64,000 nucleotides of DNA, taken from Coriobacteriia bacterium (GTDB lineage: Bacteria > Actinomycetota > Coriobacteriia > WRKU01 > WQUG01). Both the position numbers and the translations under genes were made by a program. The notes beneath the pieces are model-generated. The model did no database searches, had not been told where the DNA came from, and saw nothing but the letters and a program-made list of their open reading frames with translations. The stretch covers positions 3,383-67,382 of the forward strand of contig WRFR01000001.1 of the NCBI GenBank assembly GCA_009778715.1. The letters are read 5' to 3'. The first letter of the stretch is position 1; each line of letters starts with the position of its first letter. This document shows, one piece after another, positions 1 to 6,950 of the stretch.

Positions 1-4
1 TACC

Positions 5-120
5 TGTCACGAAAAGGGGTGAAGCCAATACCAAAAAAGAGGGGTGGCGGAACTTTGTCCACCCTGCAAGAGGCGCGGTCCGGCAAGGCGGCCGAGGAGG
101 AGGGGGGACTTTGGCTCGAT
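5..120 (+). pseudogene. Chimeric remnant of the mgtA 5' end (leader end and first codons fused to codons ~127-150 of mgtA)
   Basis: nt 5-40 closely match the intact mgtA start region at 2629-2667 (tgtcacgaaa[a]ggggtgaagccaat.ccaaa.aaga). nt 48-108 match mgtA 3025-3085 (ggaactttgtccaccctgcaagag.cg.g.tccgg.aaggcggccgag). The frame then diverges (listed ORF 19-210 MKPIPKKRGGGTLSTLQEARSGKAAE...). The ATG equivalent is mutated to ATA. Confidence 0.5.
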
Positions 121-193
121 TTTGCGTTGAGCCGAGGCTTGCTCCCGCTTATAAATATTGACAGAGTCGTACAAGCCAAGGAGGTAAACGAGT

Positions 194-664
194 ATGAGTG
201 GAGTTTGTAGGAAATGCCAACAACCGACTGAGAACGCTTATATCTTTGGTGTGGTGAAAAAGCATATACAGTTTGAACCGAACCTCCCTCATACAACAAC
301 GATCACTCCTGTAGCGCTGGTGAAGATCTTCGCATGCGATAGCTGCGGATTTGGTAAAGCCAGGTCGATGGCAGAGAAGGAATATTTTCGGGCGAAGTCA
401 GGATCAAGCGTCGATTCGAGCGGTACGATCCCGGCAGAAGATATTATCTATCCTGAGAACAGCGGAGATATCGCTACCCAATCTTGGCAGAAAAACTCCC
501 GAGCGCTTTCCGGAAGCTCTCAGTATTATCGTTTGATACCTGAAAGCAGGCTTCGCAACGACAAGTACATCAAGTTCAAAAGGATATGGAATGGAAAAAA
601 GACCGGCTATATCCCTCTCAGAGAGTGGCTTGATAAGGTCGCCCCAACTGCCCCAGACGACTAG
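194..664 (+). CDS. Hypothetical protein with N-terminal CxxC...CxxC zinc-ribbon-like motif (156 aa)
   Basis: ORF preceded by a strong SD (caAGGAGGtaaacgagtATG). Contains CRKC...CDSC. Local GC is clearly below the backbone. No family recognised by eye. Confidence 0.45.
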   Translation: MSGVCRKCQQPTENAYIFGVVKKHIQFEPNLPHTTTITPVALVKIFACDSCGFGKARSMAEKEYFRAKSGSSVDSSGTIPAEDIIYPENSGDIATQSWQKNSRALSGSSQYYRLIPESRLRNDKYIKFKRIWNGKKTGYIPLREWLDKVAPTAPDD

Positions 665-739
665 CTACGGCGCAGGGCGCTGAACCGTATCGTTGCATGC
701 TTGTTTGTAAAAACCATTACAATATGTTATTCTTTTTGT

Positions 740-1783
740 ATGAAAGAGATTGTTACAAATATTGATATGCTTCGTGAAATTGCATTGGATCAGTATGGTT
801 ATGTTACTTTTGCTCAAGCTAGGGATGCCGGTGTTACGCAACCAGCGGTCGCAATGTTAACGCGCCGAGACAGACTGGATAAAGTTGCTCATGGGGTGTA
901 CCGCGTGCCTCAAGTACCGCCCACTCAACATGATCGGTATATGTTGGCGGTGTTATGGACGGGCGCGCCAGAGGCCTGCCTGAGCCACGATACTGCTCTT
1001 GAGGTTTACGAGGTAAGTGATATCAATCCGGCGAATATTCATGTTGCTGTTGCAAAACGGCGTCGCATAAACCGTGCGGGTGGAGAGGGCTATACGCTGC
1101 ATCATGCGGATCTGGCTCCGGAGCAGGTTACTTGGTGGGAGGGCATTCCAACCGTTAGACTGCCACTTGCGATTGCACAATGTATCGATGATGGTGTGCC
1201 TGCGTACCTCATTCGCCAGGCTTTAGAAAGGGCGCCACAAAAAGGTTTATTACTACCCGAAGAACAGATCAGCCTGATCGCACAGTTGGAAGCACGCAGC
1301 GGTAAAGCGGTTGAGGCGAAAAGTGATGTCGGAGGTGGTTGGTATAATAAGAACATGTCTATGGAACTTCAACAGAGAGCCCTTTCCCGTCCAAAGGATT
1401 TTGCTGATGCAGTGCGTCAGCTTGAGGCGGGTATGCCTGACTATGTTGTGATGGGCAATTTTCTGGATGAATTCTATCGTTTGCCACAATCAAAAAAGCA
1501 AGCTTCTCTTGATAAAGAACCGCCGGCATCCTCTGCACTTGAAAAGATGATGGCAGTAAACTATGCGGCTACTGCCGAAAAACTCGCACATGATTTTAAG
1601 CTGCAAGTTCCTGTATGGGTTAATAAGCCACGGTACTTTCTTGCTGAGGGTGAAGCGATATATGGGTATCGCCCGTACAAAGAGACGCGGGCTGACCTCG
1701 CAGAGATCCTTAGAGAAGAAGCGCCCGTCGAGTTCGCCCGGCGTAATCTTTTCGTTTCGGCTAATGCGCTAACAAGGGTCTAA
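740..1783 (+). CDS. AbiEi-like (type IV TA / abortive-infection antitoxin family) protein with ~180-aa extra C-terminal region
   Basis: The N-terminus (…REIALDQYGYVTFAQARDAGVTQPAVAMLTRRDRLDKVAHGVYRV…) matches the AbiEi wHTH pattern. It is followed by an AbiEi C-domain-like stretch (CLSHDTALEVYEV…VAVAKRRR…GIPTVRLPLAIAQCID). The listed ORF starts at TTG 701, and ATG 740 is the more plausible start. The stop overlaps or abuts the next gene (TAAgATG). Confidence 0.6.
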   Translation: MKEIVTNIDMLREIALDQYGYVTFAQARDAGVTQPAVAMLTRRDRLDKVAHGVYRVPQVPPTQHDRYMLAVLWTGAPEACLSHDTALEVYEVSDINPANIHVAVAKRRRINRAGGEGYTLHHADLAPEQVTWWEGIPTVRLPLAIAQCIDDGVPAYLIRQALERAPQKGLLLPEEQISLIAQLEARSGKAVEAKSDVGGGWYNKNMSMELQQRALSRPKDFADAVRQLEAGMPDYVVMGNFLDEFYRLPQSKKQASLDKEPPASSALEKMMAVNYAATAEKLAHDFKLQVPVWVNKPRYFLAEGEAIYGYRPYKETRADLAEILREEAPVEFARRNLFVSANALTRV

Positions 1784-1784
1784 G

Positions 1785-2345
1785 ATGAAAGAGGCATTTA
1801 CTCCGGAAGAGTTTCTTCAGCTTCTGTCGCAACTGTCAGTTTGCTTGGAGCACGAGGGGAAGAAGACCACCATTATCCTCTTTGGCGGCGGAGCGCTTTC
1901 TATGTACTATGGTGCGCGGTCCACGACTCATGATTTGGATGTATTGATTAATGGGGACGATCGCAGCAGCATTATTGAAGCCGTACGAAGAATTGCAGCG
2001 GATAATGACACGGTAGATGACTGGCTCAACGACGATGGCAAGAGTCTCATTACCGACGCGATAGTTGCTGATGCGCAAGATTTCATAACACTACCAGCAA
2101 TCACCATGAAAGTAGCATCCGCTGAAGCTCTGCTGGCCCTTAAGGCGGCAGCGCTCCGCTATCTCCCAGGTTCTCATGACCTGGAAGATGTGCGATTTCT
2201 GATCCAACGCCTGAAGGTTACGGATGTCGAAGAAGTCATCACGTTGGCGGAGAAATACCTGCCCCAAAGGCTTCTGCCGCTTTCTGCTTACAATGAAACA
2301 ATGCTGGATGTTTTGATTGAAGAGATCAACAAAGAGGGCAACTAA
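1785..2345 (+). CDS. Small nucleotidyltransferase, AbiEii/DUF1814-like N-terminal core (186 aa)
   Basis: Pol-beta-type NTase signature LFGGGALSMYYGARSTTHDLDVLI (GG[SG]x...R.T.D[LI]D). It sits immediately downstream of the AbiEi-like gene. It is shorter than canonical AbiEii (~250-300 aa). Confidence 0.55.
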   Translation: MKEAFTPEEFLQLLSQLSVCLEHEGKKTTIILFGGGALSMYYGARSTTHDLDVLINGDDRSSIIEAVRRIAADNDTVDDWLNDDGKSLITDAIVADAQDFITLPAITMKVASAEALLALKAAALRYLPGSHDLEDVRFLIQRLKVTDVEEVITLAEKYLPQRLLPLSAYNETMLDVLIEEINKEGN

Positions 2346-2642
2346 GAGGATAACTGATATTTCTTTTGCTGCTGGTGGGAGATACGTGTTATCGTGGTAA
2401 CGGTTTTTCGGGCGCTGCACTTGTGGCTGCGCTCTTCGCTCTCGACCTGAGGAGGTGACTTGCATGGACGCTGGACCTGCTGCTAAACAGACTGTTCGAT
2501 TGTGCTTGTGCGTAGTGCGCGCGAGTGACGTGTGTCCATGCCGCGCGCTCTAAGGTGAGATCCTTGCACTGAGCTGAAGTTCGTTCCGCTCTCTGCATTC
2601 CTGCGTTTCAAGCACCCCTGTACTTTTCATGTCACGAAAGGG

Positions 2643-5351
2643 GTGAAGCCAATGCCAAAGAAGAAGAATGCCGCGCTTGCCGGGGGCAATGTCAGCGCTG
2701 CTACGCGCGCGGCTCAGGAGCGTCTCATCGGGGGCGCGCAGATGACGACCGATCAGCTTTACGTCAAGTACAACGTAGCTGGTAGGTCCGGCCATGACAA
2801 CGCGGCCGCGGAAAGGGCGCGGGAGCGCTACGGGTCCAACGTGGTCGCGCGGGCCCACCGGTTCTCGCTGCTCAAGCAGCTTTTCAGCTCGTTTATCAAC
2901 CCGTTTACGGTCGTCTTGCTCGCCATCGCGATCGTCTCGTTTGTGACCGACTTCATACTTGCGGCGCCGGGCTCGAAGTCGTTGACGGAAGTCATCATCA
3001 TTGTGGTGTTGGTTACCATCAGCGGAACTTTGTCCACCCTGCAAGAGACGCGATCCGGTAAGGCGGCCGAGGCGCTCTCGGCCATGATCGAGACTACCAT
3101 CGCGGTCATGCGTAATTCAGACTCGGTCGAGCTGCCCATCGACCAGATCGTGGTCGGCGACGTGGTGCTGCTGGCCGCCGGTGACATGATCCCGGCCGAC
3201 ATGCGCGTGCTCCAGGCCAAGGATCTCTTCATCGGGCAGAGCTCGCTGACCGGCGAGTCAGAGCCAGTCGAGAAGTTCTCAGACTCGCTGGAGAAATCCA
3301 GCGCAAACCCGCTCGACGATAACAACCTTGTGTTCATGGGGAGCAACGTGGTTTCTGGTTCGGCCACCTGTATGGTGCTGGCGGTGGGCGGCGATACCTA
3401 CTTTGGCCAGATCGCCAAGACGGTGACGACCACCAAGACCAAGACCGGTTTTGAGGTCGGCGTCAACAAGGTCAGCTGGCTGCTGATCCGCTTCATGCTC
3501 GTGATGGTACCGATCGTGCTGTTTGTCAACGGCTTTACCAAGGGCGACTGGATGCAGGCGGTGCTGTTTGCGCTGTCGGTGGCCGTCGGCCTGACGCCGG
3601 AGATGCTGCCGATGATCGTGAGCGCCAACCTCGCGCGCGGCGCCGTGACGATGTCGCACAAGAAGGTCATCGTCAAGAACCTCGGCTCGATCCAGAACTT
3701 CGGCGGCATGGACTTTCTCTGCACGGACAAGACCGGCACGCTCACGCAGGACAAGATCACGTTGGAGTACTCGCTTGACGTTAACGGCAACCCGGACACG
3801 CGAGTGCTGCGCCACGGATTTTTGAACAGTTACTTCCAGACGGGGCTGCGCAACCTGCTTGACCAGGCGATCATCGATCACGGCCACGACGTCGATATCT
3901 CGCACTTGAAGGAAGAGTATCACAAGGTCGACGAGATCCCGTTTGACTTCCAGCGCCGGCGCATGTCGGTTGTGGTTGAAGACCAGAGTGGCAAGACCCA
4001 GATGATCACGAAGGGCGCTATCGAGGAGATGCTTGACTGTTCGGGCTACGTGGATCAGGGCGGCGGCAAGGTCGAGAAACTGACCGACGCGCTGCGCTCT
4101 CGTGTCATGACCACGGTCGAGAAGTACAACGCGCAGGGCATGCGCGTACTGGGCATCGCGCAGAAGACCAACCCGCGGCCAGCGGGGGAGTTCTCCGTGG
4201 CCGACGAGGCCGACATGGTGCTGATCGGCTATCTGGCGTTCCTGGATCCGCCCAAGGAGAGTTCCAAGGCGGCCATCGCGGCGCTCAGCGAGCACGGCGT
4301 AGGCATCAAGGTGCTGACCGGCGATAACGACGCCGTGACGCGCTCGGTCTGCTCGCAGTTGGGCATCGAGGTGTCGGGGCTGATGCTGGGGTCGCAAGTT
4401 GAGTCGATGAGCGACGACGAACTGAAGGCCGCGGTCGAGGGCGTGTCGGTGTTTGCCAAGCTCTCGCCAGCGCAGAAGCAGCGCATCGTGAGCGCGGTGC
4501 GCGCCAACGGGCACACCGTGGGCTACATGGGCGACGGCATCAACGACGCGTCTGCGATGAAGGCCTCCGACGTGGGAATCTCCGTGGACACGGCCGTTGA
4601 CATCGCCAAGGAATCAGCCAACATTATCCTGATGGAAAAGGACCTCATGGTGCTTGAGCAGGGTGTGGTGGAAGGCCGCAAGGTCTATGCCAACATCATC
4701 AAGTACATCAAGCTGACCTGCTCGTCGAACTTCGGCAACATGTTCTCTGTGCTGGCGGCAAGCATCTTCCTGCCATTTTTACCCTTGCTGCCGCTGCAGA
4801 TCCTTCTGCTGAATATGATCTACAACATCACCTGCACGTCATTCCCGTTTGATAACGTTGACGAGGAATTTCTGGCCAAGCCACGCAACTGGGACGCCTC
4901 GACGATATCTTCGTTCATGGCGTTCTTTGGGCCGACCAGCTCGGTGTTTGACATCACCACGTACTTGGTAGCGTTCTTCTGGCTGGCGCCGCTGGCCATG
5001 GGGGCCGGATATCACGCGCTGGGCGCCACGGGGCAGGCGGGCTTTATCGCGCAGTTCCACTCGATGTGGTTCATCGAGTCGCTGCTGACACAGACGATGG
5101 TGCTGCACACCCTGCGCACCGCGAAGATACCGTTCATCCAGAGCCGCGCGAGCCTGTCGCTGATCCTGTTCTCGATCGGCGGCATCCTGGTGGGCGGCGT
5201 ACTCCCGTATACGCCGCTGGCAGCGACGCTCGGTTTCGCCCGTCCGCCGCTGATCTTCTACGCGGTGCTGCTTGTGACGATCGTCGCGTACCTGATACTG
5301 GTGAGCGTGGTGAAGAAGTTCTACACCAAGCGCTATGGCGAGTTGTACTAG
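2643..5351 (+). CDS. mgtA: Mg2+-importing P-type ATPase MgtA
   Basis: 902 aa with the P-type ATPase motifs CTDKTGTLT (phosphorylation site) and GDGINDA. It has N- and C-terminal TM bundles. The listed start is GTG 2643. ATG 2652 with AAAGGGG upstream is the probable true start. The 5' UTR is about 300 nt. Confidence 0.9.
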   Translation: MKPMPKKKNAALAGGNVSAATRAAQERLIGGAQMTTDQLYVKYNVAGRSGHDNAAAERARERYGSNVVARAHRFSLLKQLFSSFINPFTVVLLAIAIVSFVTDFILAAPGSKSLTEVIIIVVLVTISGTLSTLQETRSGKAAEALSAMIETTIAVMRNSDSVELPIDQIVVGDVVLLAAGDMIPADMRVLQAKDLFIGQSSLTGESEPVEKFSDSLEKSSANPLDDNNLVFMGSNVVSGSATCMVLAVGGDTYFGQIAKTVTTTKTKTGFEVGVNKVSWLLIRFMLVMVPIVLFVNGFTKGDWMQAVLFALSVAVGLTPEMLPMIVSANLARGAVTMSHKKVIVKNLGSIQNFGGMDFLCTDKTGTLTQDKITLEYSLDVNGNPDTRVLRHGFLNSYFQTGLRNLLDQAIIDHGHDVDISHLKEEYHKVDEIPFDFQRRRMSVVVEDQSGKTQMITKGAIEEMLDCSGYVDQGGGKVEKLTDALRSRVMTTVEKYNAQGMRVLGIAQKTNPRPAGEFSVADEADMVLIGYLAFLDPPKESSKAAIAALSEHGVGIKVLTGDNDAVTRSVCSQLGIEVSGLMLGSQVESMSDDELKAAVEGVSVFAKLSPAQKQRIVSAVRANGHTVGYMGDGINDASAMKASDVGISVDTAVDIAKESANIILMEKDLMVLEQGVVEGRKVYANIIKYIKLTCSSNFGNMFSVLAASIFLPFLPLLPLQILLLNMIYNITCTSFPFDNVDEEFLAKPRNWDASTISSFMAFFGPTSSVFDITTYLVAFFWLAPLAMGAGYHALGATGQAGFIAQFHSMWFIESLLTQTMVLHTLRTAKIPFIQSRASLSLILFSIGGILVGGVLPYTPLAATLGFARPPLIFYAVLLVTIVAYLILVSVVKKFYTKRYGELY

Positions 5352-5378
5352 GCTCGGCCTCCTTCCGTCTGAGTTCGT

Positions 5379-5421
5379 TGCTGATGAGCTTACGTAGCGT
5401 TAGTACGCTACGCTCATCAGC
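5379..5421 (+). terminator. Stem-loop downstream of mgtA stop (10 bp + bulge + 6 bp stem), no clear U-tract
   Basis: gctgatgagcttacgtagcg-ttagta-cgctacgctcatcagc inverted repeat, 28 nt after the mgtA TAG. Confidence 0.3.
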
Positions 5422-5461
5422 GCCTGCTCAGACGAAATGATTCCGTCGCCTGATATCTGAT

Positions 5462-5491
5462 AGAATAATACTAGAATAAAGTTATTATTCT
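5462..5491 (+). promoter_or_regulatory. Palindromic operator-like site in AT-rich promoter region upstream of phd/parE
   Basis: AGAATAATA-ctagaataaagt-TATTATTCT inverted repeat. TAGAAT -10-like hexamers. Ends 12 nt before the phd ATG (SD GAGGAG). Confidence 0.4.
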
Positions 5492-5503
5492 GAGGAGATA
5501 AAG

Positions 5504-5773
5504 ATGTTGATCAAATCATCAACCGCTCTGCGCAGCGACTACAATGCTATATCGACTTTGGCGCAAGAGACGCAGGAACCTATCTATATCACCAAGAATG
5601 GCGAAGGTGATCTTGTGGTGATGAGCATAGAGGCGTTTGAGCTACGCGAAGAACTTGTTAAGCTGGAAGCCAGTTTGGAATATGCTGAACGGGCTCGCCA
5701 GCAAGGGGATGAAGGTTTCTCGATAGAGAATTCGCGCGCAAGCCTGGAAGTTATCTATGGAACCCAAGTTTGA
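5504..5773 (+). CDS. Phd/YefM-family type II antitoxin
   Basis: 89 aa. …EPIYITKNGEGDLVVMSIEAFE… is the characteristic Phd/YefM core. It overlaps the downstream toxin gene by 17 nt. Confidence 0.8.
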   Translation: MLIKSSTALRSDYNAISTLAQETQEPIYITKNGEGDLVVMSIEAFELREELVKLEASLEYAERARQQGDEGFSIENSRASLEVIYGTQV

Positions 5774-6086
5774 TCTCCGTATCCTGACATCCGCCCAGTA
5801 TGACCTGGAGAGGATCGCTCTGCTCCACTTCTCATACGTGGGACCAGAATCTGCGCGTAAGATAACGAATGCACTCTATGATGCAATGGAGCATCTGTGT
5901 CGGTTCCCGGATATGGGAGTTGTATTACCCGACAAGTCACTGCAATCTCTGGGTTATCGGGGGCTGATTGTAGGTCATTATCTTTGTGTATATCGCCACA
6001 TCGAGACAACGGTATTCGTTTACCGTGTATTTAATGCCCGCTCTGATTATCCGCAGTTATGGAGAACATTGCCTAAGGGGAAATGA
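5757..6086 (+). CDS. ParE/RelE-family type II toxin
   Basis: 109 aa basic protein with a RelE/ParE-like C-terminus (…GHYLCVYRHIETTVFVYRVFNARSDYPQ). Translationally coupled to phd. Confidence 0.75.
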   Translation: MEPKFDLRILTSAQYDLERIALLHFSYVGPESARKITNALYDAMEHLCRFPDMGVVLPDKSLQSLGYRGLIVGHYLCVYRHIETTVFVYRVFNARSDYPQLWRTLPKGK

Positions 6087-6101
6087 GTAAATGAGTAAAT
6101 T

Positions 6102-6168
6102 CTTTGCAAAGCTTGCTTGACATGGATTGCAAAGCTTACTATACTAAGAATGTAAAGCAGGCTTTGCA
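6102..6168 (+). promoter_or_regulatory. Near-consensus sigma-70-type promoter (TTGACA-17-TATACT) overlapped by three CTTTGCAAAG-type palindromic operator sites
   Basis: Perfect palindrome CTTTGCAAAG at 6102-6111. TTGACA at 6117-6122 and TATACT at 6140-6145. TTGCAAAGC repeated at 6127-6135. AAAGC-AG-GCTTT palindrome at 6155-6166. The site lies directly upstream of the XRE regulator gene. Confidence 0.5.
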
Positions 6169-6197
6169 TAGATAACGAAGGAACATCAATAGATATC

Positions 6198-6428
6198 GTG
6201 ATGAAGACACGGATCCAGGAGCTGCGTAAAGAGCGCAAGCTATCGCAGGAGGAACTGGCGACAGCGGTCGGCGTGACACGCCAGACGATCACGTCTCTTG
6301 AGACGGGGAAGTACACCGCTTCGCTCGTACTGGCTGCTAAGATCGCTCGCTATTTTGACCTGACGATCGAAGAGGTGTTTCTGATCGATACTGACGATAT
6401 GCCCGGAGCAGAGGCGGGCAGGAAATAG
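6198..6428 (+). CDS. XRE-family helix-turn-helix transcriptional regulator (76 aa)
   Basis: …LRKERKLSQEELATAVGVTRQTITSLETGKYTASLVLAAKIARYFDLTIEEVF is the canonical Cro/C1-type HTH_3. Confidence 0.8.
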   Translation: MMKTRIQELRKERKLSQEELATAVGVTRQTITSLETGKYTASLVLAAKIARYFDLTIEEVFLIDTDDMPGAEAGRK

Positions 6429-6440
6429 GGAGAGAACATC

Positions 6441-6950
6441 ATGGGAATGGCAGAGGGAGTACTTGCTTCCAGCACATTGAAATACAAACATCAAGTGAAA
6501 ATGCGCCTGGCTCTTATGATCGCCATGTTTATCTGGGGTGCGCTTGCGATCGTTATCTCATTCGTTGGTTCTAATGCAAAGACGGTCGCCTCACTGCAAG
6601 ATGCAGGAATTTCTGTTCATGTGCTCAGCGAGTCCATGCAAGGTTTCTATCGTGGATTCGGCGTCGGTTTTATGGGTGCTGCTGCGGTTTTTGTGATCAT
6701 TAACCTGTACTTGCTGATTAATAAAAAGGCGCAAGCGAATCGTCGTGTGCGTGATCTGGACGAACGCAATGTAGCGATCCAGCAACGGGCTACGTCGCTT
6801 ACTGCCGCGATCACGATCATTCTCGCTGCATTTGCCATAATAGTCGCTGGCGTATTTAACACTGCGGTAATGTTTACGTTGATCGCTGTAAACCTGATAA
6901 TGGGTGCAATCTATGGGTGTGCGTGGTTGATCTTGAGATCGCGCTCCTGA
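6441..6950 (+). CDS. Small 4-TM membrane protein (DUF2975/YoaS-like partner of XRE regulator)
   Basis: 169 aa with four hydrophobic helices. It is adjacent and co-oriented with the XRE gene, in the yozG/yoaS-type arrangement. Confidence 0.55.
   Translation: MGMAEGVLASSTLKYKHQVKMRLALMIAMFIWGALAIVISFVGSNAKTVASLQDAGISVHVLSESMQGFYRGFGVGFMGAAAVFVIINLYLLINKKAQANRRVRDLDERNVAIQQRATSLTAAITIILAAFAIIVAGVFNTAVMFTLIAVNLIMGAIYGCAWLILRSRS

Follow-up and report, generated by a model that had tools for sequence, protein, structure and literature searches.

At positions 740 to 2345 of the window (the whole 64,000-nucleotide stretch of Coriobacteriia DNA that was analysed), a first gene, ORF1, encodes an AbiEi protein joined in frame to the otherwise stand-alone partner of a small nucleotidyltransferase (NTase), and a second gene, ORF2, encodes such an NTase. 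We consider it reasonably probable that a cassette of the toxin-antitoxin type (1339-2345), made up of a MenT1-like toxin and a helical antitoxin, supplanted the AbiEii gene of an AbiE locus and was thereby fused to AbiEi. The features on which the argument is built are as follows.

740..1783, + strand: ORF1, a chimeric 347-aa protein (AbiEi, linker, partner domain), from the ORF list and NCBI MCL2881273.1
740..1301, + strand: complete AbiEi moiety, ORF1 residues 1-187, from PADLOC, Pfam and comparison with locus L018
767-910, + strand: N-terminal wHTH, ORF1 residues 10-57, part of the AbiEi moiety and followed by its C-terminal domain
1302..1338, + strand: junction segment of 37 nt, lying between the limits of homology to L018 and to locus L004 and coding for part of the linker GKAVEAKSDVGGGWYNKN
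1339..2345, + strand: shared two-gene cassette (partner and mini-NTase), from homology to loci L004 and L006
1340..1357, + strand: TGGTATAAT, an extended -10-like element 6 nt before ATG 1355, conserved with L004
1376..1783, + strand: partner domain (residues 213-347 of ORF1), of all-alpha type and from a family of about 126 aa without a Pfam entry
1785..2345, + strand: ORF2, a 186-aa minimal MenT1-like NTase (DUF1814 superfamily, DUF6036-like) and putative toxin, from motifs and profile matches

ORF1 runs from ATG 740 to TAA 1783 (347 aa); an alternative start at TTG 701 would give a protein of 360 aa. Its product is named 'AbiEi family antitoxin domain-containing protein' in NCBI. The PADLOC AbiEi model matched residues 6-194 (E=1.7e-69) and Pfam AbiEi_4 residues 10-57 (E=2e-10). 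The best 120 homologues were all about 190 aa long and spanned just the N-terminal 47-56% of the protein, and residues ~195-347 had no family match in Pfam, NCBIfam, PADLOC or PHROG. An earlier note had described ORF1 as over-long for an AbiEi, with an AbiEi-like N-terminal part; both observations were borne out, and the extra C-terminal residues (about 160) indeed form a real, unannotated domain. The junction between the two parts was the same in two independent assemblies, one from ENA (L001) and a Logan assembly of run SRR10512950 (L002; 0 mismatches in 1589 nt), ruling out an assembly chimera. Small interleaved inverted repeats surround the ORF1 start (704-725 and 750-769), but we did not find them convincing as an AbiEi operator, and Rfam scans of window positions 1-6500 and of L001 positions 1-6200 gave no match. 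The locus is a low-GC insert that adjoins CBASS and a ParE/Phd pair.

The nearest relative of the AbiEi moiety, L018, comes from the same sample as the window, shares 91% amino-acid identity with it and belongs to a genuine AbiEi-AbiEii pair. The upstream flank is common to both loci (96.5% identity), and homology ends at 1301, in the last AbiEi codons. In L018 the AbiEi ends ...LEARSE-stop at the equivalent of window positions 1301-1306, and the N-terminus of a canonical AbiEii lies downstream of this stop codon; in canonical relatives, PF08843 genes of 317-324 aa overlap the end of AbiEi. On the other side, the DNA homology with L004 starts at TTGGTATAAT and ends at the stop codon of the NTase. 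Thus, a cassette of about 1 kb (1339-2345) took the place of AbiEii and yielded the chimera. The breakpoint eliminated the AbiEi stop codon, and by chance the 18-codon linker leading to the partner start contains no stop and keeps the frame, giving a three-part protein made up of the wHTH and C-terminal domain of AbiEi and of the partner. The junction segment had no significant match elsewhere within the window. An mgtA remnant at 47-97 encodes the peptide EARSGKA, which is also present where AbiEi meets the linker. An mgtA origin of the linker was nevertheless rejected: the score of a local DNA alignment was 15, whereas shuffled sequences averaged 15.2 and 1078 of 2000 of them reached at least the same score, and EARS is native to the L018 AbiEi, so that we treated the likeness as a coincidence. 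Purifying selection acts on all three parts, AbiEi, partner and NTase (dN/dS 0.03-0.09).

The locus shares with AbiE, MenAT3 and MenAT4 a complete AbiEi (COG5340), formed by the N-terminal 187 residues of ORF1, and a bicistronic arrangement with a downstream NTase of the DUF1814 superfamily carrying motifs I-IV. It differs from AbiE in that the cognate AbiEii of 317-324 aa is gone, so that no full-length AbiEii (~290-320 aa) lies directly downstream; a 186-aa NTase of unrelated lineage stands there with its own partner, and AbiEi, devoid of a stop codon, runs on into that partner. In AbiE, the toxin has a bacteriostatic effect that AbiEi counteracts, and phage infection is aborted.

The earlier note had proposed instead that the accessory C-terminal region of AbiEii had been relocated to the antitoxin, leaving a core-only NTase. 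The lengths would roughly fit (347 + 186 aa, as against 190 + 320 aa), and ORF2 matched only positions 126-191 of the Pfam AbiEii model (31.8 bits, cut-off 22.5). However, when the partner profile was aligned with canonical AbiEii of the same clade, the hhalign probability was 0.08%, and the alignment of the ORF2 family with this AbiEii was restricted to motifs I and II (1.4%). A structure-library search found no similarity between the partner and the solved MenT and AbiEii structures, which, with the profile comparison, indicates that no accessory region was moved. Furthermore, in many phyla that lack AbiEi the partner exists as a gene family of its own, accompanied by NTases that are just as short, and the breakpoints indicate replacement, not rearrangement. 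We give this proposal almost no credence.

Replacement thus being the preferred reading, the nature of the incoming cassette has to be considered. ORF2 starts at ATG 1785, one base past the ORF1 stop, and codes for 186 aa. NTase motifs I-IV have been described as hG[GS], R + DhD, a hydrophobic K...R, and +DxxD (PMC3985639). In ORF2 we found F33-G-G35, R45, T48-x-D50-x-D52, K120...R125 and D132-x-x-D135, motif IV reading H131-D-L-E-D135, so that all four motifs of an AbiE NTase are present. These residues were invariant or nearly so in 61 relatives. At D50-L-D52 the spacer was 14 residues long, versus 15 in AbiEii, and the best match to the PADLOC AbiEii models had an E-value of only 1e-4. Matches to DUF6036 and DUF2204 were near threshold for ORF2 itself (22.4 bits for DUF6036, with a gathering threshold of 23.6), although 54/61 members of its family matched DUF6036 and 25/61 DUF2204 (E<=0.01) and the lengths are similar. 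No function or partner was described for either family in the literature searched, in which DUF6036 was unmentioned and the sole mention of DUF2204 was unrelated.

ORF2 belongs to a large family of NTases of ~170-200 aa (1096 representative clusters) and, judging from its sequence, has the minimal MenT1-type fold in full, the four DUF1814 motifs included. The description of ORF2 as an under-sized AbiEii reduced to its catalytic core was therefore mistaken. The closest structures to the family were MenT toxins, as found with the family profile (single sequences did not reach MenT1); PDB sequence searches with the ORF1 or ORF2 protein alone gave nothing useful. The toxin-specific MenT motifs III and IV are kept in ORF2. 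By analogy, ORF2 is probably a tRNA-modifying toxin.

The comparison with MenAT1 of Mycobacterium tuberculosis (Rv0078B-Rv0078A) is instructive on both sides. ORF2, like MenT1, is a minimal DUF1814-superfamily NTase of about 190 aa; T39, D41, K137 and D152 of MenT1, which are phospho-acceptor and catalytic residues (PMC11375011), correspond in an HMM alignment to T48, D50, K120 and D135 of ORF2; and a small non-COG5340 protein is encoded directly upstream of the NTase (PMC10435456, PMC11375011). On the other hand, sequence identity is only 18%, the predicted activity being based on analogy, and the partner is a folded helical protein of 126-142 aa, unrelated to the 68-aa MenA1. It is here fused to AbiEi, no MenA1-type short antitoxin being present. 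The module furthermore occurs in either gene order and in many phyla, while only 21 MenA1 homologues have been reported (PMC10435456).

The C-terminal 135 aa of ORF1 share 81% identity with a stand-alone protein (135/142 aa) of L004 and L006, which is encoded 1 nt upstream of an NTase 85% identical to ORF2. The partner family has the conserved motifs NFLDEFY, AATAE.LA and RNLFVS.NAL.R; it was previously unnamed and is widespread. We found no solved structural relative of it and no detectable similarity to known antitoxins, and none of the PADLOC models recognised it. In metagenome loci seeded with the NTase, a sample drawn with a five-sequence alignment and biased to the subfamily of ORF2, the partner was immediately adjacent in 73/73 informative cases, with intergenic gaps of -25 to +95 nt and in either gene order. 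Conversely, the NTase was adjacent in 64/80 genome loci seeded with the partner (80 examined of 284), again in either order. Members of the partner family were found in Actinomycetota, Bacillota (including cultured Cohnella and Paenibacillus), Verrucomicrobiota, Planctomycetota, Acidobacteriota, Pseudomonadota and Fibrobacterota. Physical interaction of the two proteins is implied by natural fusions: P0361 joins NTase and partner, and P0303 and P0345 carry a TacA/ParD-like RHH, the partner and the NTase in a single chain.

About ten partners were orphans, located beside housekeeping genes (ligA, parC and similar), and no orphan NTase was found among the loci sampled, which were pattern-seeded and biased to the subfamily of ORF2. 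Such an asymmetry would follow from the NTase being the toxin. It argues against reversed roles, as in type VII HEPN-MNT systems, where a HEPN-fold toxin with an Rx4-6H motif is nucleotidylated and inactivated by an NTase antitoxin. The small size of the NTase, the size of the all-alpha partner (~130 aa, that of a HEPN domain) and the occurrence of either gene order would suit such an arrangement. Yet the Rx4-6H motif is absent from the invariant columns of the partner and no HEPN was found among structural matches, on which grounds a HEPN-like partner was rejected; moreover, the structures nearest to ORF2 are toxins. A toxic helical partner nucleotidylated by ORF2 appears very improbable.

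Hardly more plausible, in our opinion, is a two-subunit enzyme that has nothing to do with toxin-antitoxin systems, in which a resistance NTase, or one modifying RNA or a small molecule, would be associated with a substrate-binding or regulatory subunit. A regulatory or specificity subunit, in place of an antitoxin, would likewise be compatible with the single-chain fusions of NTase and partner, and in some Verrucomicrobia the module lies within housekeeping operons, for example between sucB and lpd (L009, L010). This explanation is however difficult to reconcile with the DUF1814/MenT pattern of conservation (R45, TxDxD, K...R, DxxD) and with the RHH of TacA/ParD type joined to the partner in P0303 and P0345. 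Furthermore, the cassette is tightly mobile: homology is confined to the promoter and the two genes, and the flanks differ in L004, L007 and the window. Selfish toxin-antitoxin cassettes typically insert into unrelated operons, as this one does. Most likely, the module is a toxin-antitoxin system with a new antitoxin family; genomic context, the one line of evidence on the role of the partner, points to a cognate antitoxin. No relative of the partner or of the module was found in the viral contigs searched; with the lack of a PADLOC model for the partner, this leaves a defence role unsupported.

Is the fused protein itself functional? Neither the best 120 of the 607 partner homologues nor the 80 genome loci examined (of 284) contained another AbiEi-partner fusion; among these homologues and loci, the fusion was seen only in the present lineage. 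We estimated the chance of obtaining an open, in-frame junction at random at about 1 in 7 (~14%; 1/3 x (61/64)^18), and with its confinement to one lineage this means that the fusion may be an accident. In addition, the TATAAT-N6-ATG geometry at 1340..1357 is common to the window and L004, in which a gene of its own encodes the partner, and the same spacer in L004 contains an in-frame TGA, indicating that the cassette normally terminates upstream reading. The element is possibly an internal promoter with a leaderless start, from which the partner might also be produced alone as a separate 142-aa protein. It is thus conceivable, although we think it distinctly less probable than a fused antitoxin, that the fusion is a functionless by-product, the working antitoxin being the 142-aa partner started at 1355, and AbiEi an orphan that at most represses its own promoter or is decaying. 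Against this, the AbiEi moiety displayed a dN/dS of 0.07 at a dS of 0.63 versus L018, a value that spans the whole divergence and cannot date the fusion but is hard to square with long neutral decay. The RHH-partner fusions also show that an N-terminal DNA-binding extension is viable. Finally, the start at 1355 is only a candidate: a consensus promoter scan left 1340..1357 unscored, no -35 element being present, and so lends no support to promoter strength.

A DNA-binding domain N-terminal to the partner is a recurrent arrangement, as the RHH of P0303 and P0345 likewise precedes the partner domain. ORF1 therefore resembles type II antitoxins such as TacA and ParD in having a DNA-binding module followed by a (putative) neutralising module. 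It differs from them in that its DNA-binding module is a whole captured AbiEi, including the antitoxin C-terminal domain of the latter, and from P0303 and P0345 in that these contain the NTase in the same chain. A bolder reading, to which we accord a modest chance, somewhat below that of the by-product, is that the partner represents a new, widespread antitoxin family directed at minimal MenT-like tRNA NTase toxins, portable behind RHH or AbiEi heads, and that ORF1 is a working dual antitoxin. The captured AbiEi would then provide autoregulation and might, in addition, hold a non-cognate NTase at a second point and induce its phosphorylation; the locus would illustrate how, in nature, a toxin can be swapped and the antitoxins fused. 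No cross-talk has been reported between non-cognate MenA and MenT proteins (PMC10435456).

In the mechanism that we favour, replacement of AbiEii by a toxin-antitoxin cassette, ORF2 would extend the 3' ends of tRNAs with added nucleotides and so block translation, by analogy with MenT1, MenT3 and MenT4. The partner would neutralise ORF2 by direct binding, possibly with its highly conserved C-terminal tail (RNLFVS.NAL.R), and might also induce ORF2 to auto-phosphorylate its conserved Thr48, the effect that MenA1 has on T39 of MenT1. The fusion would plausibly act as a DNA-binding, autoregulating antitoxin against the new toxin.

NTase toxins of the MenT/AbiEii type are an active topic, because of their modification of tRNA 3' ends and their antitoxin-induced auto-phosphorylation, and their antitoxins are known to be diverse. 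The wider interest of the locus lies in the partner and mini-NTase module. It was there that the earlier note, which had suspected a non-canonical AbiE with something undescribed in it, proved right, though not about the AbiE origin that it proposed. With hundreds of members, a nearly obligate pairing with MenT1-like mini-NTases and no recognisable fold relative, the partner family is a concrete, easily cloned candidate for a new neutralisation mechanism. Even if the module is not a toxin-antitoxin system, the analysis corrects the mis-annotation of its genes as 'AbiEi domain-containing protein' and 'hypothetical protein'. The fusion itself records the replacement of a toxin at an existing toxin-antitoxin locus, of which the unrearranged allele persists in the same sample, and this makes the locus useful for studying how toxin-antitoxin and defence modules recombine.

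The locus, found in a Coriobacteriia MAG, consists of two genes separated by 1 base:

740-1783, same direction as ORF2: ORF1, 347 aa counted from the ATG
1785-2345, same direction as ORF1: ORF2, 186 aa

Residues 6-194 of ORF1 are unambiguously AbiEi (PADLOC AbiEi, E=1.7e-69; Pfam AbiEi_4 at residues 10-57, E=2e-10), and its last ~150 residues had no match in Pfam, NCBIfam, PADLOC or PHROGs. ORF2 scored above the Pfam AbiEii threshold (31.8 bits vs 22.5), the match being restricted to model positions 126-191, and matched DUF6036 and DUF2204 near threshold. Because of these matches, the earlier note was correct in describing an over-long AbiEi-like protein, with extra residues devoid of recognisable motif, and a short nucleotidyltransferase (NTase). 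NCBI labels ORF1 (MCL2881273.1) 'AbiEi family antitoxin domain-containing protein' and ORF2 'hypothetical protein'.

The best 120 homologues of ORF1 among 5.8 billion clusters were all ~190 aa long and covered just its first 47-56%. A word-indexed search returned just three close relatives of ORF2. On contigs L004 and L006, an NTase 85% identical to ORF2 is preceded, with a 1-nt gap as in the window, by a stand-alone gene of 135 aa (142 aa if started at an upstream ATG); on contig L007 a 167-aa gene precedes an NTase 42% identical to ORF2. The L004 stand-alone protein, which we named 'partner', shares 81% identity with ORF1 residues 213-347. By sequence, ORF1 is a chimera made of two complete proteins.

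The closest AbiEi (91% amino-acid identity) is that of contig L018; the sample that yielded this contig also yielded L001, another assembly bearing the locus. The upstream gene end and promoter are common to L018 and the window (96.5% nucleotide identity). The L018 AbiEi terminates ...LEARSE-stop, and 8 nt ahead of this stop begins a gene whose product has an N-terminus typical of AbiEii; more distant 190-aa AbiEi relatives are followed by overlapping 317-324-aa PF08843 AbiEii genes. The homology boundaries in the window were as follows:

1301: end of homology with L018, at the second-to-last AbiEi codon
1339: start of homology with L004 (TTGGTATAAT)
2345: end of homology with L004, at the NTase stop codon

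These boundaries indicate that a ~1-kb cassette (1339-2345) substituted for AbiEii. The redistribution of AbiE domains previously suggested is thus replaced by a cassette swap, seen at the breakpoints, the C-terminal part of ORF1 being the partner protein. A 37-nt bridge (1302-1338) lies between the AbiEi part and the cassette. An 18-codon linker (GKAVEAKSDVGGGWYNKN) keeps the frame open into the partner ATG at 1355, and the 6-nt TATAAT-to-ATG spacer holds an in-frame TGA in L004 and AAG in the window.

By our own estimate, ~14% of random junctions would happen to be both in frame and open, so that the fusion by itself is no evidence of selection. The main rival explanation is that the fused AbiEi-partner state may be a tolerated accident. 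Of 607 partner homologues, the 120 with the best scores included no second such fusion, nor did the ORFs examined in the best 80 of 284 genome loci. The junction sequence is the same across independent assemblies, and purifying selection acts on all three parts of the locus (dN/dS: AbiEi 0.07, window vs L018; partner 0.087 and NTase 0.034, each window vs L004).

Window 454-1301 is a mosaic relative to L018 (96.5% identity upstream of the AbiEi start codon, 86% with dS 0.63 within AbiEi), which implies a recombination boundary near this codon and a putative AbiEi allelic exchange between co-resident strains. Two places encode the peptide EARSGKA(A/V)E, namely 68-97 (mgtA remnant) and 1290-1320 (AbiEi/linker junction); DNA-level likeness was not significant, and this is probably a coincidence rather than common origin.

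The partner family (607 proteins at E<=0.01, mostly 126 aa, without Pfam domain) strongly conserves the motifs NFLDEFY, AATAE.LA, P.W and ESP..F..RNLFVS.NAL.R. Scanned in full with HMMER, 1.84 billion representatives yielded 1096 clusters of ORF2 relatives (E<=0.001), mostly of 170-200 aa; among 61 sampled, 54 matched DUF6036, 27 AbiEii and 25 DUF2204. Adjacency on the same strand was scored both ways. With the partner as seed in GTDB genomes, an adjacent NTase was present in 64 of the best 80 of 284 loci (the NTase came first in 44 and the partner in 20); contig ends interrupted some six others, and about ten were true orphan partners, adjoining ligA, parC and similar genes. With the NTase as seed in metagenomes (80 loci, 7 on contigs too short to count), all 73 informative loci had an adjacent partner (42 NTase-first, 31 partner-first; gaps of -25 to +95 nt), hence no orphan NTase among them. 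Hosts were Coriobacteriales, Chitinispirillales, Cohnella and Paenibacillus isolates, Clostridia, Synergistaceae, Verrucomicrobiota, Planctomycetota, Acidobacteriota and Gammaproteobacteria; the partner was not found on viral contigs. Single-chain forms in other lineages comprise NTase-partner (P0361), partner-NTase (P0365) and a TacA/ParD-like RHH followed by partner and NTase (P0303, P0345). P0252 also belongs with the single-chain or tandem forms, and a 585-aa protein carries two mini-NTase domains in tandem. In Verrucomicrobia-like contigs L009, L010 and L011 (~3444-4381), an NTase-partner pair lies between E2 and lpd in the 2-oxoglutarate dehydrogenase operon, an odd home for a selfish cassette.

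Comparison of the ORF2 fold gave the following scores:

MenT1 (8an4; 154 residues aligned): 10.1
fungal NTase-like protein: 9.1
ANT(2''): 8.5
MenT4: 8.5
MenT3/TglT: 7.5

MenT1 was also the sole significant PDB match of the NTase family profile (E=1e-5). In MenT1, T39 is the phospho-acceptor, and D41, K137 and D152 are catalytic or nucleotide-binding (PMC11375011); the profile alignment equates them with T48, D50, K120 and D135 of ORF2, which are invariant or nearly so in the family. ORF2 also has all four of the DUF1814 motifs by which AbiEii is defined (PMC3985639). With these motifs and residues retained, ORF2 is by sequence and fold a complete minimal MenT-type enzyme and not, as had been proposed, one reduced to its catalytic core.

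The low-GC segment (~98-2479; GC 49% vs ~60% in the flanks) holds both genes and the first of the features below; the other two lie downstream of it:

194-664, + strand: 156-aa ORF with CxxC...CxxC cysteine pairs
5504-6086: Phd/YefM-ParE toxin-antitoxin pair, downstream of mgtA
6104-6172: three tandem 23-nt repeats (TTGCAAAGCTTGCTTGACATGGA-like), after this pair and before an HTH gene; they may form an operator array

A duplication of the mgtA leader and 5' end brackets the segment (window 1-97 vs 2480-3072; L001 3250-3497 vs 5880-6472); the left copy has lost 348 bp internally and is a remnant, and the right one starts an intact P-type ATPase gene (2643-5351). The arrangement suggests that the region upstream of mgtA is a hot spot where an insertion or duplication may have taken place. 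In L004, 92-nt direct repeats (577-668 and 1784-1875, 86% identical), both encoding the protein C-terminus ...VYDGEVLSDRRNRLESEAGDE[EK]-stop, bracket the partner+NTase cassette of this closest stand-alone copy; in both L004 and the window, the insert lies between duplicated parts of a gene next to it. The 156-aa ORF, which had no family match and is annotated at NCBI just as a 98-aa version, also lies directly upstream of AbiEi in L018 (~97% nucleotide identity) and could be a third component of the AbiE variant. L001 1-3400, directly upstream of the window start, encodes a CBASS (oligonucleotide cyclase fragment, E2, NucC-type endonuclease effector), so the locus sits in a defence island.

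Judging from its context, the NTase-partner cassette is most likely a toxin-antitoxin-type module with the NTase as putative toxin, because adjacency is near-obligate and the fusions imply NTase-partner contact, the partner of other lineages can carry an antitoxin-type RHH in the same chain, orphan partners were seen and orphan NTases were not, the cassette is tightly mobile into unrelated flanks, and the low-GC insert adjoins CBASS (in L001) and the Phd/ParE pair. The NTase would extend tRNA 3' ends in the manner of MenT1, MenT3 and MenT4 (PMC10435456, PMC7450476). As a novel type of antitoxin, the partner would bind the NTase, plausibly via its conserved C-terminal segment, and may induce auto-phosphorylation of T48, like MenA1 on T39 of MenT1. 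In this lineage ORF1 would act as a composite antitoxin, its AbiEi wHTH possibly repressing the abiE promoter. Separate synthesis of the partner may also start from the conserved TGGTATAAT-N6-ATG; such leaderless geometry is common in Actinomycetota.

The closest functional likeness of the locus is to MenAT1 and AbiE, yet it belongs to neither, since its antitoxin differs from that of MenAT1 and the cognate AbiEii is missing. The small NTase family overlaps with the uncharacterised Pfam families DUF6036 and DUF2204; no paper describing these or the partner was found in the literature searched. We rate the locus as a putative NTase toxin paired with a putative antitoxin of a new family, plus a chimeric AbiEi fusion limited to one lineage. 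The module is a good, cheap target for experiments; the locus extends a known theme, and its conspicuous fusion may be incidental.
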